IMG/VR virus record: IMGVR_UViG_3300045988_179014
Span: 96,001-160,000 of that record
Reading direction: 5' to 3' (one strand)
Length of the DNA: 64,000 nt
From: a virus
Of this stretch, positions 719-56,056 are shown one piece after another; position 1 is the first letter of the stretch; the number at the start of each line of letters is the position of its first letter. Both the position numbers and the translations under genes were made by a program. The notes under the pieces are model-generated. The model ran no database searches. It saw only the letters and a program-made list of their open reading frames with translations, and had not been told where the DNA came from.

Positions 719-726
719 ATAATTGG

Positions 727-800
727 TACGGCAGGGGGGATTTGAACCCACCTATTTCCACTTTATAAGAGTGGCGCTCATACCGATTAGCATCTGCCGT
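727..800 (-). tRNA. tRNA-Ile-like, anticodon UAU (reads AUA)
   Basis: Acceptor acggcag/ctgccgt, anticodon stem ccact/agtgg with loop cuUAUaa, T-loop TTCAAAT. Confidence 0.7.
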
Positions 801-888: not shown

Positions 889-964
889 GCACCCTCGGTG
901 GGACTCGAACCCACATCAATCCAATTATGCGCTGCCCGCTTAGAAGGCGGTGCCAGTACGAGGG
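889..964 (-). tRNA. tRNA-Arg-like, anticodon loop cuUCUaa; fold atypical
   Basis: Acceptor gccctcg/cgagggt and T-arm GTGGGTTCGAGTCCCAC are clear. The Arg-UCU anticodon arm follows the acceptor after only about 7 nt. A 20-nt D-loop-like segment (cagcgcataattggattgat) lies between the anticodon arm and the T-arm. Confidence 0.5.
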
Positions 965-987
965 CATGTTTTCATATGTTGGCGACT
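964..987. repeat. 24-nt element catgttttcatatgttggcgacttg, inverted copy at 1627-1650
   Basis: Both copies encode MFSYVGDL in opposite orientation and both abut a tRNA gene end. Confidence 0.5.
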
Positions 988-3118: not shown

Positions 3119-3194
3119 CACTCCGGGTGAGAGTCGAACTCACATGTGTCCATTAACCTTTCTACTGGTTCGTAGCCAGAGGGTATACCGGAGT
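3119..3194 (-). tRNA. tRNA-Arg-like, anticodon loop cuACGaa; fold atypical
   Basis: Acceptor actccgg/ccggagt and T-arm GTGAGTTCGACTCTCAC are clear. The Arg-ACG anticodon loop matches the bacterial CTACGAA loop. As in 889-964, the anticodon arm follows the acceptor after about 8 nt, and a 21-nt D-loop-like segment precedes the T-arm. The gene abuts tRNA-Cys. Confidence 0.5.
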
Positions 3195-6400: not shown

Positions 6401-8464
6401 TCTCAGACAAGGAATCATTCCACAGCAAGTTTGCATCTTCACGAAACTGTTCTCTTCTGAATCGAAACTTGTGCACCCGGCGACCTTGCGCCACATAAGA
6501 ATAATCAGAGCTGAGTTCTTTATCTGTCACAAAACCCAATGATTTATACATGCTACCATTGCTGACATCATGAGCAGAGAAAGTGACGATTTGGTTGATT
6601 CCTTCAATTACGCACCATTTTCTGACGTATTCAAGCATCTTCCCCAATCCGCCCATCACAATACAAGACGTGGCATATCGGTCCAACACCAAACTCTGAT
6701 TCCTGCGACTCCAAACGGAAACCGCCACTAAACCATCCTGTTCAGTTTTCAACCCCAAATACAATGAGCCAGTGGTAGTTCCCTGAATATGATAAACATT
6801 CAAAAAATCAGATACATCAGTATATTGCAAAACTACAACTTTAGTTTTTCTCGCAGCTATCCTTTTGCTCTCATTCAGTCCCAGTTTGTGTTGTATCATA
6901 GATTTGATGATAGAAGAACGATAACACCAATCATCCTCCCAAACCTGCAACAATTGAATGCCTTTTCTTTACACAATCGCCATTTCATCGAATGATAGTT
7001 TTTGTCTTTACCATTGGTGTCAGAATGCCAATGCAAACCATTGTATTCAATAGCAAAATTCTTTGATGGTATATAAACATCCAGTTCATACGGTGGAATA
7101 ACAGCACGAGTATTGCTAACAACAGAATCCTCATCACCCAACAATTGTTTCACAAACTCTTGAAGTTCTTTCTCAGCTCTGGACGTGAATGAACCAGCCA
7201 CACAATCAGGACATTGACTATTGTAAAAATTACGTGCATTGACTCTTGCACACCACACATGGCCTTTACTGCATTTCCACCAGATTTTGTGATTGGAACC
7301 AGCAGTTACTTCCTCAGGGGTCAAGGAATTGAGTTGGTTGTCCCATTCCTGCGCTAAATGAGGATTAATAGTCGCCAAATCATTGAAACCAGGAACAACA
7401 ACACGATTATTACAAACAGGACACAACTGCATTGATGAGTGAACAGCTTTTTTAATAGATTGTGTCCATTGGTGACCAAGTGAACATTTCCAGTGAACTA
7501 TTTCCCGTGAATTGGGATACACAGCATAGGGATTCAATGGCTGATTAAGTTCCATATCCCAAAAACTCATCAATTCAGGACAACAAACACCCAAGCTCTT
7601 CTCTCTTGGTGCTATCGTGGATTTTTGTACAACACAATATGGGCATTTGGTTCTTTTATTGACACGTTGTTTAACAGTAGCCACCCATAAATGCCCCTCA
7701 GAACATTTCCAATGAACACGAATTTGCTGTGACGGTTTAATCATGGATGGATTGATGTCAGTATTGAGAGCATAATCCCATTCATTCAACAGCTCTGGAT
7801 ACAAAGTCGCAAAATCATTCACACCCACCACTAATTTATGATTACTGCATACCGGACATTTAGTATTTCGTTTAGTACGTTGCGAAACCGGTGCCATCCA
7901 TGTGTGTCCATTCTTGCACCACCAGTAAACCTTGACGCTGGAATTAGCAGTCACATCATTAGGCGATAAGGAATGATTCTGTTCATAATCCCACTCAGAT
8001 GCAATCACTGGATGAGTAATGTTCAAAGTATTGACATTTTGTTCTGGAAGCTTACCTTGACATATTGGGCATGAGCCGCTTTTAATCCGGTGTTTCACTC
8101 CCATGACATATTCATGACCTGATGAACAAATCCAATGGAAACGTTTTGAGTTGGTTCTAGCAACTTGTCCAAAAGGGATTCCATTCATGTTCTCATCCCA
8201 TTCTGACAACAAATGAGGGTATCGAACATCCAATCTTTCTGATGGTGGTCCCAATCTTGCGCACAATGGACAACTACTGCCATTGACTCGGTTACGGACA
8301 GAAGCCATCCACTTGTGTTGACAATGATGACAAACCCAACCCACTTTTTCAATCGTCCCAGCTGAATAATCGGATGGAGTGTGCTTGTTGATAGTCGTGT
8401 CCCATTCCATCAACAACTGAGGAGCCACATCCGTGAGTGAACGTTTGGGTTGAGGTTTACGCAT
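6324..8464 (-). pseudogene. frameshifted paralog of the modular endonuclease family (zinc-ribbon repeats + DUF559-like + conserved C-terminal domain)
   Basis: ORFs 6896..8464 and 6324..6953 lie in different frames and overlap. Together they reproduce the full architecture of 21891..23792 (..YELDVYIPS..AIEYNGLHWH.. then ..QLLQVWEDDW..VWDSGKTRW). The frame break is at the A/T run near 6960-6968. Confidence 0.6.
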
Positions 8465-21890: not shown

Positions 21891-23792
21891 TCATGAATCC
21901 AGCATCTTCACCCAACGAGTCTTACCCGAATCCCAAACTTTGCTCAAACCGTTCAATTCCACCAATTCGGATTCGGTCAAACCATCTTGCCACAATAATT
22001 CCGGGTCTTTCATGAAACGTTGTTTACGAAACACAAACTTGTGGTATCTACAATTCTTCCAAACATACTTGTAATCTGGTGGCAATTCTCTGTCCAGTGT
22101 GAATCCATTGGAAACATACACAGTACCATCACTGACTTCATGGTCTGAGAAAGAAACAATCCGATGAACACCTGATAATTGAACAACAGCATATTTCAGC
22201 AATTTACTGAAACCACCAGGAACAGACACGGAAGTGGCGAAACGTTCCAATACAGCAGTCTCATTTTGCAGAGAAAATGACATAACCGCCACCAACGAAT
22301 TGGTCTCATCCACTAAACCAAAAGACCTGGTAAAATCCTTGAAACCCTGAATATGGTACGAATTCAAAAATTCACGAACCACATTCTTGTCAGGAATCAC
22401 ACCAACCGTTTTACGCGCCATGACACGACTGACACTCAACCCTAATTTGTGTCGTATCATAGATTTGACGATAGAAGAACGATAACACCAATCATCCTCC
22501 CAAATCTGCAATAATTGGACCTGTTTGTCATGACACTGTTTCCACTTGTTGTAATGATACTGACGAGGATTGGGACGTCCAGCTTCACGCATCACATTTT
22601 CTTGATGCCAATACACGCCATTCACTTCAATGGCCAAATGCTTGGATGGTATATAAACATCCAGCTCATATGGCGCAATAAGTGAACGGTCATGTCGCAC
22701 CACGGATTCAGACCCCACTAAACCTTCCACGAACTTTGCAATCTCCAACTCGCTCACTGATGCATTGGACCTGCATTGTCGACAACCACTGTAGCGACGT
22801 GAATAAACTGCCGCTTTCCAAGAATGTCCTTTTTGGCAACGCCACCAGACTTTTCGAGATGATTGAACTGTAACCATTTCTGGTCCATTACCATTCAAAA
22901 CCTCATCCCACTCACATGCAAGGTCAGGAGAAACTGTTTTCAAATCATTGAATCCCACCAAAACCCTAGTGTTTGAATTTGAACAATAAGGACAACCTGT
23001 GGATTGACGATGAGCCACTGATGCTTCCCAAGAATGTCCTCGGAAACACTGCCACCAATATTTGTTAGCTGTTCCATAAAGAACTTCGGATGGCGTCACC
23101 AACCCATTCTTTGATGGATGCCATTCCTGTGTCAGCTGCGGATTGACAGTAGCCAAATCGTTGAACCCGAACCATACTTTCCGATTAGCGCAATACGGAC
23201 ACCCTTGTCGTCTTTGACTTCGTTTAATTATGGATGCTTCCCACTCATGGTTGTTCACACACTTCCACCACACCTTTTTGGAACTGGTGTACAAAACCTC
23301 ACATAGTGATTCAAGATTTTTCACATTCCATTCCGGAACCAACTCTGGATTACAACTGGCCAAATCGTTGAAACCAGATAGAACCTTCCTGTTGGCACAA
23401 TAAGGACAACCTTGATTCCGTGTTGTACGATACTTGACTTTGGCTTCCCAAATATGACCCAAAACACATCGCCATGTGAATACTTGTGAACTGGTAGCAA
23501 GAATAGAACTTGTATCAGGTGTGTTCACGTCCATGATTAATTCTGCTGCTATTTGTGGGAACTGTGACTTCAAATCATTGAACCCAGCAAGCACTTTCCG
23601 ATTCGCACAATAAGGGCAACCACTGTGTCGATTGGATTTGTTGTTGACAGATGATTCATAAGAATGCCCTAATGAACACAACCAATACGCTTTGATGGAG
23701 GAACCTTGTGGAAGATGGTCAGGATTCAAATGAGAATTACGTTTCCAGCCCCATTCACTCATAAGTAACGGAGAATCTGATACATTCCGCAT
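21891..23792 (-). CDS. modular nuclease, probable homing endonuclease: ~9 zinc-ribbon repeats (DUF4379-like) + DUF559/Vsr-like PD-(D/E)xK + conserved C-terminal domain
   Basis: Repeats of W.C..GH.W.A.V..R.....GCPYC.N..V..GFNDL; then YELDVYIPSKHLAIEVNGVYWH; then the QIWEDDW...HIQG...VWDSGKTRW domain shared with the two paralogs. Confidence 0.65.
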   Translation of the reverse strand: MRNVSDSPLLMSEWGWKRNSHLNPDHLPQGSSIKAYWLCSLGHSYESSVNNKSNRHSGCPYCANRKVLAGFNDLKSQFPQIAAELIMDVNTPDTSSILATSSQVFTWRCVLGHIWEAKVKYRTTRNQGCPYCANRKVLSGFNDLASCNPELVPEWNVKNLESLCEVLYTSSKKVWWKCVNNHEWEASIIKRSQRRQGCPYCANRKVWFGFNDLATVNPQLTQEWHPSKNGLVTPSEVLYGTANKYWWQCFRGHSWEASVAHRQSTGCPYCSNSNTRVLVGFNDLKTVSPDLACEWDEVLNGNGPEMVTVQSSRKVWWRCQKGHSWKAAVYSRRYSGCRQCRSNASVSELEIAKFVEGLVGSESVVRHDRSLIAPYELDVYIPSKHLAIEVNGVYWHQENVMREAGRPNPRQYHYNKWKQCHDKQVQLLQIWEDDWCYRSSIVKSMIRHKLGLSVSRVMARKTVGVIPDKNVVREFLNSYHIQGFKDFTRSFGLVDETNSLVAVMSFSLQNETAVLERFATSVSVPGGFSKLLKYAVVQLSGVHRIVSFSDHEVSDGTVYVSNGFTLDRELPPDYKYVWKNCRYHKFVFRKQRFMKDPELLWQDGLTESELVELNGLSKVWDSGKTRWVKMLDS

Positions 23793-54370: not shown

Positions 54371-56056
54371 TCAATCAAAAGTTTTCACCCAGCGCACCTT
54401 ACCAGAATCCCAAACTTTGCCTAAACCATTCAATTTAGCCAATTCGTTCTCAGTGGCGCTGGAATCAAACAACAAATCAGGGTCACGTTCAAACCGAAAA
54501 CCGTTCTGCTCATACAAAAATCCATCACTGACTTCACAATCCGAAAAAGTCACCAGCCTACGAGGATTACAAACAATCTCGAAATGCTTCAACAATTTAC
54601 TGAACCCACCAGGAACAGACACAGAAGTAGCATAACGAACAATGAAATAACAATCCTGCTGCTTCATCACTGAAAACACTGCCACCAGTAGATTGGTTCT
54701 CTTGTCCCACAAACCAAAATGCTTCGACGCTCCAACAAAGCCTTGAATATGATTTGTATTCAGGAACTCCCGTGCAACGGAAACCGAAACGTCCCCTATT
54801 CGAGTTTGTCGTGCCCCCACCCCTTTCGGAGACACCTTCAATCTGTGTGCAATCATTCGTTGTAGAATTGACCGTTTGTAATACCAGTCATCTTCCCAGA
54901 TTTGAAACAATGACACACCTTGAGCACGACAGGAAACATACTTGTCACGATGATAGTTACGATTTTTGCCAAATTGTTCACTGTGCCAATACAACCCATT
55001 CACTTCAATAGCAAAATGTAACTCTGGAAAGAAGAAATCCACTTCATATGGTCCAATGAGACTACGCACTCGTTCCTCTACAGGCCCAGAATAAACCGAA
55101 CGAACAAAGGCCCCCACTGATTGCTCCAACCTTGATGTCCCTTTATCGCGATTGGCAGGTAGTAAAGGCATCATCCACCGTTCCAACCAGCGTATTGTAA
55201 ACTTGGAGTCAGAGTCATCAAGACAATTGTTCAACTCATCCACCAAATCATGATAAGTCAATGTTCTATTGGCATGAAAATATGCAGCCAGTGAGTCCAA
55301 GTCTTTGTAAGGTGTTTTCAATAATCGTGCTAAACTTGTTTCTTTGGCTTTACGTGATGAACGTCCACGATTTTTGACCACGTTGTCTGCACTTTTCTTC
55401 AACTCCAGCTTGTTGACAATTTTACTCCATGTACGTTCCCCAATAGAATGTCCTGTTTCTGTCTTAATCAGTTGCAGTAACTCGGTAGCTGTCAAATTGT
55501 CATCATTGTACAATTCATGTAAACGTTTTTGAGTGAAACCATGTGCAGCCAACTCTTGTATCTGGTTTTCCAAAGTTGTTTGTTTACGAACTTTGATGTT
55601 ACGTTCCTGTAAAATTCTGGAAAGTACTGAAGGAGAAATTCCATATTCTCGATACATGGATTCCAAAGACTTTCCAGTTTGGTATTCTGCCACTGCTTCA
55701 TCAGCTGTGATTCCCACCCCATATTTGGCGTCAGTTGCGTATTTTCTGCGTTGTGATTCATTAATTTTTGCCATACGCAACATATTGGTTTCTTCTATGG
55801 AACGATTCTTCAACCCTGCATATGTCCACAAAGAAGCAAGAGACGATTTGGATATCACCGTTTCCCCAGCTTTTTGATTGATGGCTGCGATGATGTCGTT
55901 TTTACTCATACCATCATCATATTTGGTTTGGATTGTTTCAACATCCCAACCCAATGATGCCAAAACTGTGATACGACGTTCTATCCTCTCTACATTGGTT
56001 GATTTTTTGTTTGGTGTATTGTGTCTTGAATGTTGTGAAATAGTAGAATCTGTCAT
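54371..56056 (-). CDS. modular nuclease paralog with N-terminal helix-turn-helix-like repeats instead of zinc ribbons
   Basis: C-terminal PYEVDFFFPELHFAIEVNGLYWH plus the QIWEDDW ... VWDSGKVRW domain shared with 21891..23792 and 6324..8464. Confidence 0.6.
   Translation of the reverse strand: MTDSTISQHSRHNTPNKKSTNVERIERRITVLASLGWDVETIQTKYDDGMSKNDIIAAINQKAGETVISKSSLASLWTYAGLKNRSIEETNMLRMAKINESQRRKYATDAKYGVGITADEAVAEYQTGKSLESMYREYGISPSVLSRILQERNIKVRKQTTLENQIQELAAHGFTQKRLHELYNDDNLTATELLQLIKTETGHSIGERTWSKIVNKLELKKSADNVVKNRGRSSRKAKETSLARLLKTPYKDLDSLAAYFHANRTLTYHDLVDELNNCLDDSDSKFTIRWLERWMMPLLPANRDKGTSRLEQSVGAFVRSVYSGPVEERVRSLIGPYEVDFFFPELHFAIEVNGLYWHSEQFGKNRNYHRDKYVSCRAQGVSLFQIWEDDWYYKRSILQRMIAHRLKVSPKGVGARQTRIGDVSVSVAREFLNTNHIQGFVGASKHFGLWDKRTNLLVAVFSVMKQQDCYFIVRYATSVSVPGGFSKLLKHFEIVCNPRRLVTFSDCEVSDGFLYEQNGFRFERDPDLLFDSSATENELAKLNGLGKVWDSGKVRWVKTFD

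Follow-up and report, generated by a model that had tools for sequence, protein, structure and literature searches.

The viral DNA analysed here, to which we refer as the window, is a 64,000-nucleotide (nt) stretch (positions 96,001 to 160,000 of IMG/VR virus record IMGVR_UViG_3300045988_179014). Between positions 100 and 3415 it carries an array of 19 canonical tRNA genes, all on the minus strand, and according to both ARAGORN and Rfam none of these 19 is a tRNA-Arg. At positions 3119-3194, inside the array, lies a further gene that an earlier note, made from the sequence alone, had described as tRNA-Arg-like, with an anticodon arm placed soon after the acceptor stem and a D-loop-like stretch behind it. 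A single nucleotide lies between its discriminator (3119) and the 5' end of a tRNA-Cys gene (3117), a spacing usual for tRNA genes that are processed together. We consider it highly probable that 3119-3194 is a functional tRNA-Arg(ACG), a member of a family of phage Arg and Ile tRNAs that fold as a three-way junction with an internally permuted core. This assessment is based on sequence comparison, from which we also infer a function in translation.

As had been claimed, the acceptor stem, the T arm and the anticodon loop CUACGAA are all present on the minus strand (Table 1). The acceptor stem (7 bp plus discriminator) and the T arm stacked directly on it conform to canonical tRNA structure, and so does the anticodon arm, in which a stem of 4 bp plus a U.U mismatch bears a 7-nt loop that has U33 and, at position 37, a purine. 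CCA is not encoded. The anticodon arm begins 7 to 8 nt past the acceptor stem, in agreement with the distance of about 8 nt given in the earlier note and with the Rfam alignment, and the D hairpin (positions 10-25) is absent between the acceptor and anticodon stems, where there are only 7 nt. The 21-nt stretch previously regarded as D-loop-like does follow the anticodon arm and does contain AAUGGA. It is not one loop, however, but consists of a linker (AGAAA), a segment (GGUU) that pairs with UACC on the other side of the anticodon arm, and the strand AAUGGA plus CACAU. We refer to the pairing of these two 4-nt segments, which encloses the anticodon arm, as helix X. The unpaired strand that runs from it into the T stem, AA(Y)UGG-N20-NNN-A-U in the family, is AAUGGA-CACAU in this gene. 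By analogy with canonical tRNAs, it may supply A14, A15, G18/G19 (3151-3150), A20 (3149, an Arg identity base), A21 and U48. Minimum free energy (MFE) folding placed a 3-bp hairpin at RNA positions 42-51, which are mostly positions that vary freely in the family, and we found no conserved self-pairing in the 21-nt stretch after the anticodon arm.

Table 1. Features of the rearranged-core tRNA genes in the window; segments are listed in the order of the RNA, and paired positions are counted along it
Feature	Position	Strand	Details
Rearranged-core tRNA-Arg(ACG), whole gene	3119..3194	minus	76 nt including discriminator G73 (3119); RNA from 3194 to 3119: ACUCCGG UA UACC C UCUGG CUACGAA CCAGU AGAAA GGUU AAUGGA CACAU GUGAG UUCGACU CUCAC CCGGAGU G
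Acceptor stem, 5' strand ACUCCGG	3188..3194	minus	pairs with 3120-3126 (CCGGAGU), 7/7 pairs
U8 A9	3186..3187	minus	UA in 108/108 family sequences, unforced by any search pattern
Helix X, 5' strand UACC	3182..3185	minus	A11-U39, C12-G38, C13-G37 paired; U10.U40 conserved mismatch
C14 junction nucleotide	3181	minus	
C14 and anticodon arm	3164..3181	minus	stem UCUGG/CCAGU, outer pair U.U; loop CUACGAA
Anticodon loop CUACGAA	3175-3169	minus	anticodon ACG at 3173-3171
Linker AGAAA between anticodon stem and X 3' strand	3159..3163	minus	family linker 3-5 nt
Helix X, 3' strand GGUU	3155..3158	minus	evidence as for X 5' strand
D-loop-like single strand AAUGGA + CACAU	3144..3154	minus	
T arm GUGAG-UUCGACU-CUCAC	3127..3143	minus	directly abuts 3' acceptor strand
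Paralogue, rearranged-core tRNA-Arg(UCU)	890..965	minus	76 nt, layout as 3119-3194

The second odd gene of the array, with a UCU anticodon, has the same layout, as had been proposed; it occupies 890-965 and not 889-964. Its X helix, UGG(C)/(G)CgCA, contains a G.G mismatch or a bulged G. In two 81-nt UCG variants at other loci (L017:4778-4858, plus strand; L014:4380-4460, minus strand) the tail after GGA is 9 nt long and X apparently consists of 4 bp and a bulged U; a similar bulge may fit the paralogue (UGGC/GCgCA).

ARAGORN called all 19 canonical tRNAs of the window but neither 3119-3194 nor 890-965, and Rfam likewise reported the 19 and missed both odd genes at its gathering score. With permissive filters the Rfam tRNA model (RF00005) gave 21.2 bits for 3119-3194, compared to a cut-off of 29, in an alignment that deleted the D arm (15 model positions reduced to 4 nt) and inserted 17 nt in the variable region; the paralogue reached 29.8 bits with lax filters only. 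The tRNA covariance model thus fails to fold 3119-3194 canonically, and this result, together with the homologues described below, supports the earlier suggestion of a variant tRNA-Arg architecture in place of the cloverleaf. We also considered other ways of reading the locus. Neither inspection by hand nor the Rfam tRNA and tRNA-Sec models revealed a concealed D arm or an alternative anticodon arm. The plus strand forms hairpins but offers no T arm abutting an acceptor stem, and the neighbouring tRNAs are all on the minus strand. A class II tRNA does not fit, as a D arm is lacking and the region behind the anticodon arm forms no hairpin of its own, part of it pairing with the 5' segment instead.

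A search pattern made of the features common to both paralogues returned 19 loci in viral contigs, 17 of which share the layout, with wholly different acceptor stems. A pattern for the UCU loop (loop, UAAnUGGA and UUCGA fixed) matched at least 119 stretches in viral contigs, and a scan with a non-U first anticodon base (loop CU-VNN-AA) matched 87. In all, 186 unique sequences match the parse, 184 of them also keeping the X and anticodon-stem pairing, and 30 unique Ile-type members come in addition. Their common layout is an acceptor strand (7 nt), U8 A9, 4 nt (Y + 3), 1 nt, the anticodon arm (5+7+5), a linker of 3-5 nt (most commonly UGAAA, AGUA or AGAAA), 4 nt (3 + U), AA(Y)UGG-N, NNN-A-U, the T arm, the second acceptor strand and N73. 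Hundreds of homologues carry the arrangement seen at 3119-3194, and a single event producing a lineage-specific variant in this phage, as the earlier note had supposed, is contradicted by what is a widespread family with an Ile branch, present in many cultured phages and in a few cellular arrays. In cellular genomes (one genome per species, 185,579 prokaryotic species, 596 Gb) the UCU pattern matched only 16 stretches. Ten of these are real members, mostly on metagenome-assembled contigs or within tRNA arrays; the remaining six lack an acceptor stem and are chance matches. Members on cellular contigs were seen in Acidobacteriaceae bacterium KBS 96 (L147), a Chloroflexi metagenome-assembled genome (L141) and Aquamicrobium zhengzhouense (L145), partly within dense tRNA arrays (25 tRNAs in 8 kb in L147, 35 in L141).

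The proposed secondary structure is supported by covariation. The X and anticodon stems lay outside every search pattern and filter used to assemble the covariation sets. Each length class was aligned separately and without gaps, with an anchor-based parse, as joint alignment with MAFFT put the linker gap in the wrong place and divided the 3' strand of X. In the 76-nt class (n = 65), 95.1% of the cells were paired compared to 62.4% after shuffling, and the covariation score of 0.871 was reached by none of 500 shuffles, which gave 0.223. The 77-nt class (n = 40) behaved in the same manner (96.4% paired, covariation 0.876; column shuffles 62-64% and 0.22, 0/500 as high), and its X helix was 100% paired with both-side changes in all 3 pairs. 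When the partner strand was slid by 1-3 columns, pairing fell to 37-48%. Compensatory changes were likewise observed in the acceptor stem (98.6-99.3% paired, changes in all 7 pairs), the anticodon stem (88-90%) and the T stem (99-100%).

Helix X itself occurs with many strand combinations (CGG/CCG, CGA/UCG, ACC/GGU, CCC/GGG, CUC/GAG, CAC/GUG, CGC/GCG, CUG/CAG, CCA/UGG, CCU/AGG and UCC/GGA). Its pairs 2 and 3 are Watson-Crick in 108/108 sequences, with all four pair types at each; the remaining pair is Watson-Crick in 74%, the exceptions being limited to two subfamilies, and the outermost position (pair 1) is a conserved Y.U mismatch (94%). The gene at 3119-3194 shows this same pattern (Table 1), and its TACC/GGTT combination is frequent among ACG members. 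A single strand of 12-13 nt joins X to the T stem. Judged by these sequence patterns, the secondary structure is a three-way junction formed by the acceptor stem, by X and the anticodon stem as one long arm, and by the T arm. A family covariance model (R1) built from the 76-nt class, with 3119-3194 left out of the seed, scored this gene at 68 bits (E = 2e-17), whereas the canonical tRNAs of the window reached at most 31.5 bits. The paralogue, which belongs to the seed, scored 83.6 bits. Across the family ARAGORN calls overlap only 3 of 221 genes, and Rfam at its gathering threshold detected 9 of 19 sampled genes with 29-41 bits, compared to 43-76 for canonical genes, so that covariance-based finders will report some members as weak tRNAs without revealing their layout.

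The anticodons of the family are restricted to two amino acid identities. The scan with a non-U first base returned solely ACG (57), CCU (13) and CCG (2), all 57 unique ACG members having the loop CUACGAA, and Arg members with UCU and UCG were also found. The Ile branch comprises 30 unique sequences with UAU (20) or GAU (10) and the loop CUKAUAC (e.g., L190:9034-9110 and L149:2428-2504) at loci L232-L293. A dedicated scan for G35 or U35 anticodons in this layout found no members. No rearranged Ile member is present in the window, the canonical tRNA-Ile(UAU) of which (724-800, minus strand) has the lowest Rfam score in the array, 44.9 bits. Adjoining a UCU member at another locus (L008:4651-4744, minus strand) is a member of 94 nt with the loop CUUAUAA (UAU), in which an additional hairpin is inserted behind AACUGG.

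Bacterial identity sets comprise A20, C35, U/G36 and A/G/U73 for Arg and U20, A35, U36 and A73 for Ile (PMC9976931, Table 1), both of them including position 20 of the D loop. In the family, the base after GG (equivalent to position 20 of the D loop), which the searches left free, is A in 57/57 ACG members and U in 29/30 Ile members (Fisher p = 3e-22), while N73 is A in 30/30 Ile members and G, A or U in Arg members. Both positions agree with the bacterial sets. The gene at 3119-3194 has the complete Arg set, with A at 3149, C35 at 3172, G36 at 3171 and G73 at 3119, and the assignment of both odd genes to Arg made in the earlier note holds on the grounds of their anticodons as well as these identity nucleotides. 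As the identity bases track the anticodon, the displaced strand appears to present "position 20" in the manner of a real D loop. Position-20 identity may also explain why a D loop has to be retained, though it leaves the rewiring of the core unaccounted for.

The odd genes supply anticodons that the canonical tRNA-Arg genes of the same arrays lack. At the 94 loci that also carry a canonical tRNA-Arg, the anticodon is shared with the odd gene 7 times, compared to 30.0 +/- 3.8 times after shuffling (0/5000 as low). Where the odd gene is ACG, the locus has canonical UCU 28 times and canonical ACG twice, whereas odd UCU genes are accompanied by canonical UCU 4 times and by canonical ACG 12 times (Fisher p = 3e-6). 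On the contig studied here the array runs on past window position 1 into a neighbouring segment (L009) with 34 ARAGORN tRNAs, among them canonical tRNA-Arg(CCU) and tRNA-Arg(CCG) (L009 7048-7124 and 9046-9120). The odd UCU and ACG genes and the canonical CCU and CCG genes make up a non-redundant set of four Arg isoacceptors on the contig. In the open reading frames (ORFs) of the window, the Arg codons CGT, CGA, CGC and AGA account for 42%, 18%, 10% and 13%, respectively.

We propose that in these genes the canonical block 10-21 (5' strand of the D stem plus D loop) has moved behind block 22-47, which would give the order 1-9, 22-25, 26, 27-43, 44-47, 10-13, 14-21, 48, 49-76. The X 5' strand (UACC) would then correspond to D-stem positions 22-25, the linker to variable positions 44-47 and the X 3' strand (GGUU) to D-stem positions 10-13; the arrangement could have originated by duplication of the D and anticodon domain and subsequent loss of both ends. 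The connectivity of the family fits such a permutation. The X 5' strand is followed by 1 nt and the anticodon 5' strand, as are 22-25 by 26, the X 3' strand leads directly into A-A-Y-U-G-G, as do 10-13 into A14-G19, and the variable region is split into about 4 nt and then 1 nt. X would stack on the anticodon stem like a D stem, with 5 + 1 + 4 layers as in the canonical count. The nucleotides of the U8-A14 and A15-U48 pairs and A21 would be in place, and the GG could reach the T loop, yielding an ordinary L shape. When we re-ordered the segments in silico, placing the D-loop-like block before the anticodon arm, ARAGORN called 184/184 sequences, 182 of them as Arg, compared to 0/184 in native order.

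The gene would be transcribed within the tRNA array, and its transcript would be trimmed by RNase P and 3' processing and would receive its CCA post-transcriptionally. A34 would be converted to inosine by host TadA, and host arginyl-tRNA synthetase (ArgRS) would charge the tRNA via A20, C35, G36 and G73. The resulting ICG anticodon would be expected to read CGU, CGC and CGA, which make up 70% of the Arg codons in the window ORFs.

Several observations speak against this interpretation or weaken its support. The L-shaped three-dimensional fold and the permuted mapping, with the X 5' strand as 22-25, are inferred rather than demonstrated. Under this mapping G10 is found in only about 55% of members. 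The re-ordering experiment did not discriminate the mapping, as ARAGORN still called 171/184 sequences in a control whose D stem was non-complementary; it accepts D-stem mismatches too readily for the test to tell which X strand is 10-13. The outer pair of the anticodon stem is often mismatched, leaving 3 clean pairs in one subfamily. UAAnUGG and UUCGA were forced by the search patterns, and their invariance is partly by construction. In the UCU-pattern scan, U8, A9 and the final A and U before the T stem were 90-100% conserved though unforced (final A at least 90%, final U 100%). Finally, AAUGGA in 3119-3194 lacks 1 nt of the family consensus AAYUGGA; the shorter form is also present in the UCG gene of Streptomyces phage Mildred21.

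An improbable alternative, in our estimate, is that the gene encodes a tRNA-like decoy or regulator that does not decode and instead soaks up or inhibits a host tRNA-targeting nuclease, ArgRS or a modifying enzyme, its anticodon loop and elbow serving as bait. Phage tRNAs that counter tRNA-directed defences are known (PMC10264068, PMC11464382), the architecture is confined to two amino acid identities, and its core is odd enough that compatibility with the ribosome is not assured. Nevertheless, the avoidance of anticodons already present among the canonical Arg genes of an array (7 overlaps where about 30 were expected) is the pattern of a substitute decoder rather than of an added decoy. The acceptor stem, discriminator, position 20 and anticodon all obey synthetase identity rules and switch jointly between the Arg and Ile branches, and solitary copies mostly have UCU, the anticodon for AGA.

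It is still less probable that the transcript is cut and religated post-transcriptionally, e.g., by a phage RNA ligase, to restore the canonical order in a manner comparable to red-algal permuted tRNA genes. The segment order would suit this explanation, being an exact internal permutation of a canonical tRNA, and in some carriers an RNA ligase gene lies close to the array (e.g., Mildred21 gene 203). Such a pathway would, however, require two cuts and two ligations within the molecule, for which no bulge-helix-bulge or other processing motif is evident. Moreover, X covaries in the genomic order, in which it encloses the anticodon arm, and the junction lengths are tightly kept in that order. 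That 3119-3194 might be degenerate, as the earlier note had offered as its alternative, or might resemble a tRNA by chance, we regard as the least credible of the three explanations, even though neither ARAGORN nor Rfam at its gathering score called it and the MFE z-score is just -1.98. The compensatory changes in all four helices, seen across more than 100 diverse sequences, lead us to reject it, as do the R1 score and the scarcity of accidental matches: 6 in the 596 Gb of cellular genomes compared to more than 100 structured matches in viral contigs.

Compared to canonical bacterial and phage tRNA-Arg(ACG/ICG), the gene shares the 7-bp acceptor stem, the 5-bp T stem, the UUCGA loop, CUACGAA, the length of 76 nt and the nucleotides A20, C35, G36, G73, U8, A14, G18, G19, A21 and U48, and it occupies the ACG slot of a tRNA array. 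It differs in that no D hairpin lies between position 9 and the anticodon arm, which is instead flanked by D-stem-like strands, and in that the D-loop-like strand connects X to the T stem, so that the junction is three-way instead of four-way. D-armless mitochondrial tRNAs are not known to form the elbow between G18-G19 and the T loop. Like the phage genes, these tRNAs (metazoan mt-tRNA-Ser; PMC7609411) have no D hairpin, a short connector and a three-way junction. They are, however, truncated and flexible and reside in organelles, whereas members of the phage family are of full length, have a GG-containing D-loop-like strand and a canonical T loop, and enclose the anticodon arm in a covarying helix. 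We rejected a D-armless mitochondrial type for 3119-3194 itself in view of its 76 nt, its 21-nt region with GG after the anticodon arm and its UUCGA T loop.

An altered segment order due to circular permutation is also known from tRNA genes of the Cyanidioschyzon merolae type (PMC3978253), in which the whole molecule is permuted (3' half first) and processing restores the order. In the phage family the ends are canonical and the permutation is limited to 10-47, and the covariation points to folding of the RNA in its genomic order. Engineered permuted tRNAs show that the tRNA fold tolerates changed backbone connectivity. A permuted gene of the red-algal type was rejected for 3119-3194, as its acceptor strands stand in normal order at both ends. 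Other natural tRNAs that depart from the 7/5 branch, i.e., tRNA-Sec, tRNA-Pyl and allo-tRNAs with 8/4 or 9/3 branches, were likewise mined from metagenomes, some of them in phages (PMC5389517, PMC7609411). These alter helix lengths but keep the segment order, and none of them puts the D-loop region after the anticodon arm. The only types treated in a 2020 review of natural non-canonical tRNAs are Sec, selC*-Cys, allo-, Pyl and mitochondrial tRNAs, and the present layout is absent from it (PMC7609411). In the full-text literature searched, the coverage of which was incomplete, we found no prior description of it, and an earlier one is possible. A motif of a 2023 catalogue of viral structured RNAs, DNAVirus_2961, sometimes overlapped ARAGORN tRNA-Arg calls (PMC10690425) and may be the family described here.

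Among cultured phages, genes of the ACG type were found in 42 Streptomyces and 3 Microbacterium phage records, and further carriers include Vibrio phages, Agrobacterium phage Atu_ph04, Stenotrophomonas phage SOVA965, Limnohabitans phage DC31 and a crAss-like phage. None of the 45 Streptomyces and Microbacterium phage records has a feature annotated at the ACG-type gene, and the same nearly always applies to the records of the other carriers. Mildred21 (MF155946; L231 1511-1586 and 5001-5077) has two members, located at 91367-91442 and from 94857 onwards. One of them, SEA_MILDRED21_169, is annotated as tRNA-Phe(gaa) but is a rearranged-core gene in which the loop CUUCGAA contains the Arg anticodon UCG; the other, of the ACG type, is unannotated and occupies, within the tRNA array, the gap that separates genes 185 and 186. 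Two other structured RNAs were seen in carriers: a GOLLD RNA (RF02032, 159.5 bits; L023:6036-6505, minus strand) adjoining a phage tRNA array with two rearranged tRNA-Arg genes, and a permuted tmRNA (RF04321, 91.8 bits; L036:2679-2928, minus strand) in another.

The window has no close relatives in the cultured-phage collection, in which its matches are limited to single tRNAs, and the best matches of its RecG-like helicase are just 30-32% identical. It also has three tRNA-Lys and two tRNA-Asn genes. Three of its minus-strand ORFs (6896-8464, 21891-23792 and 54371-56056; 522-633 amino acids) match the HNH/homing-endonuclease families phrog_559 and phrog_3339, which suggests several homing endonuclease insertions in this phage.

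For the family as a whole, we lean, if only slightly, towards the following picture. It would be a widespread class of phage Arg and Ile tRNAs with an internally circularly permuted core, in which the anticodon arm is enclosed by the D-stem strands and the D loop runs into the T stem, the three-way junction folding into an L shape that shows position 20 to ArgRS or isoleucyl-tRNA synthetase (IleRS). The rewiring was perhaps selected because it hides these tRNAs from host factors that read the D arm, e.g., tRNA-targeting nucleases; such evasion is, for the present, pure conjecture. In a retron study, the tRNAs of T5 and E. coli were found to differ mainly around the D loop (PMC12475279).

These genes are missing or mislabelled in curated phage genomes, and the counts of phage tRNA-Arg and tRNA-Ile as well as analyses of codon compensation are therefore biased. 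Few features in biology are as strongly conserved as the cloverleaf order of acceptor stem, D arm, anticodon arm, variable region and T arm, and a natural family that apparently functions although its backbone takes another course through the core would show that the L shape can be reached without this order. Since cultured carriers exist, direct testing is possible, and the family offers a test case for how far a rewired core is tolerated by ArgRS, IleRS, RNase P, EF-Tu, the CCA-adding enzyme, TadA and the ribosome. The fold may in addition serve as a scaffold on which orthogonal tRNAs are built, and it opens the way to testing whether rewiring protects phage tRNAs from tRNA-directed immunity of the host.

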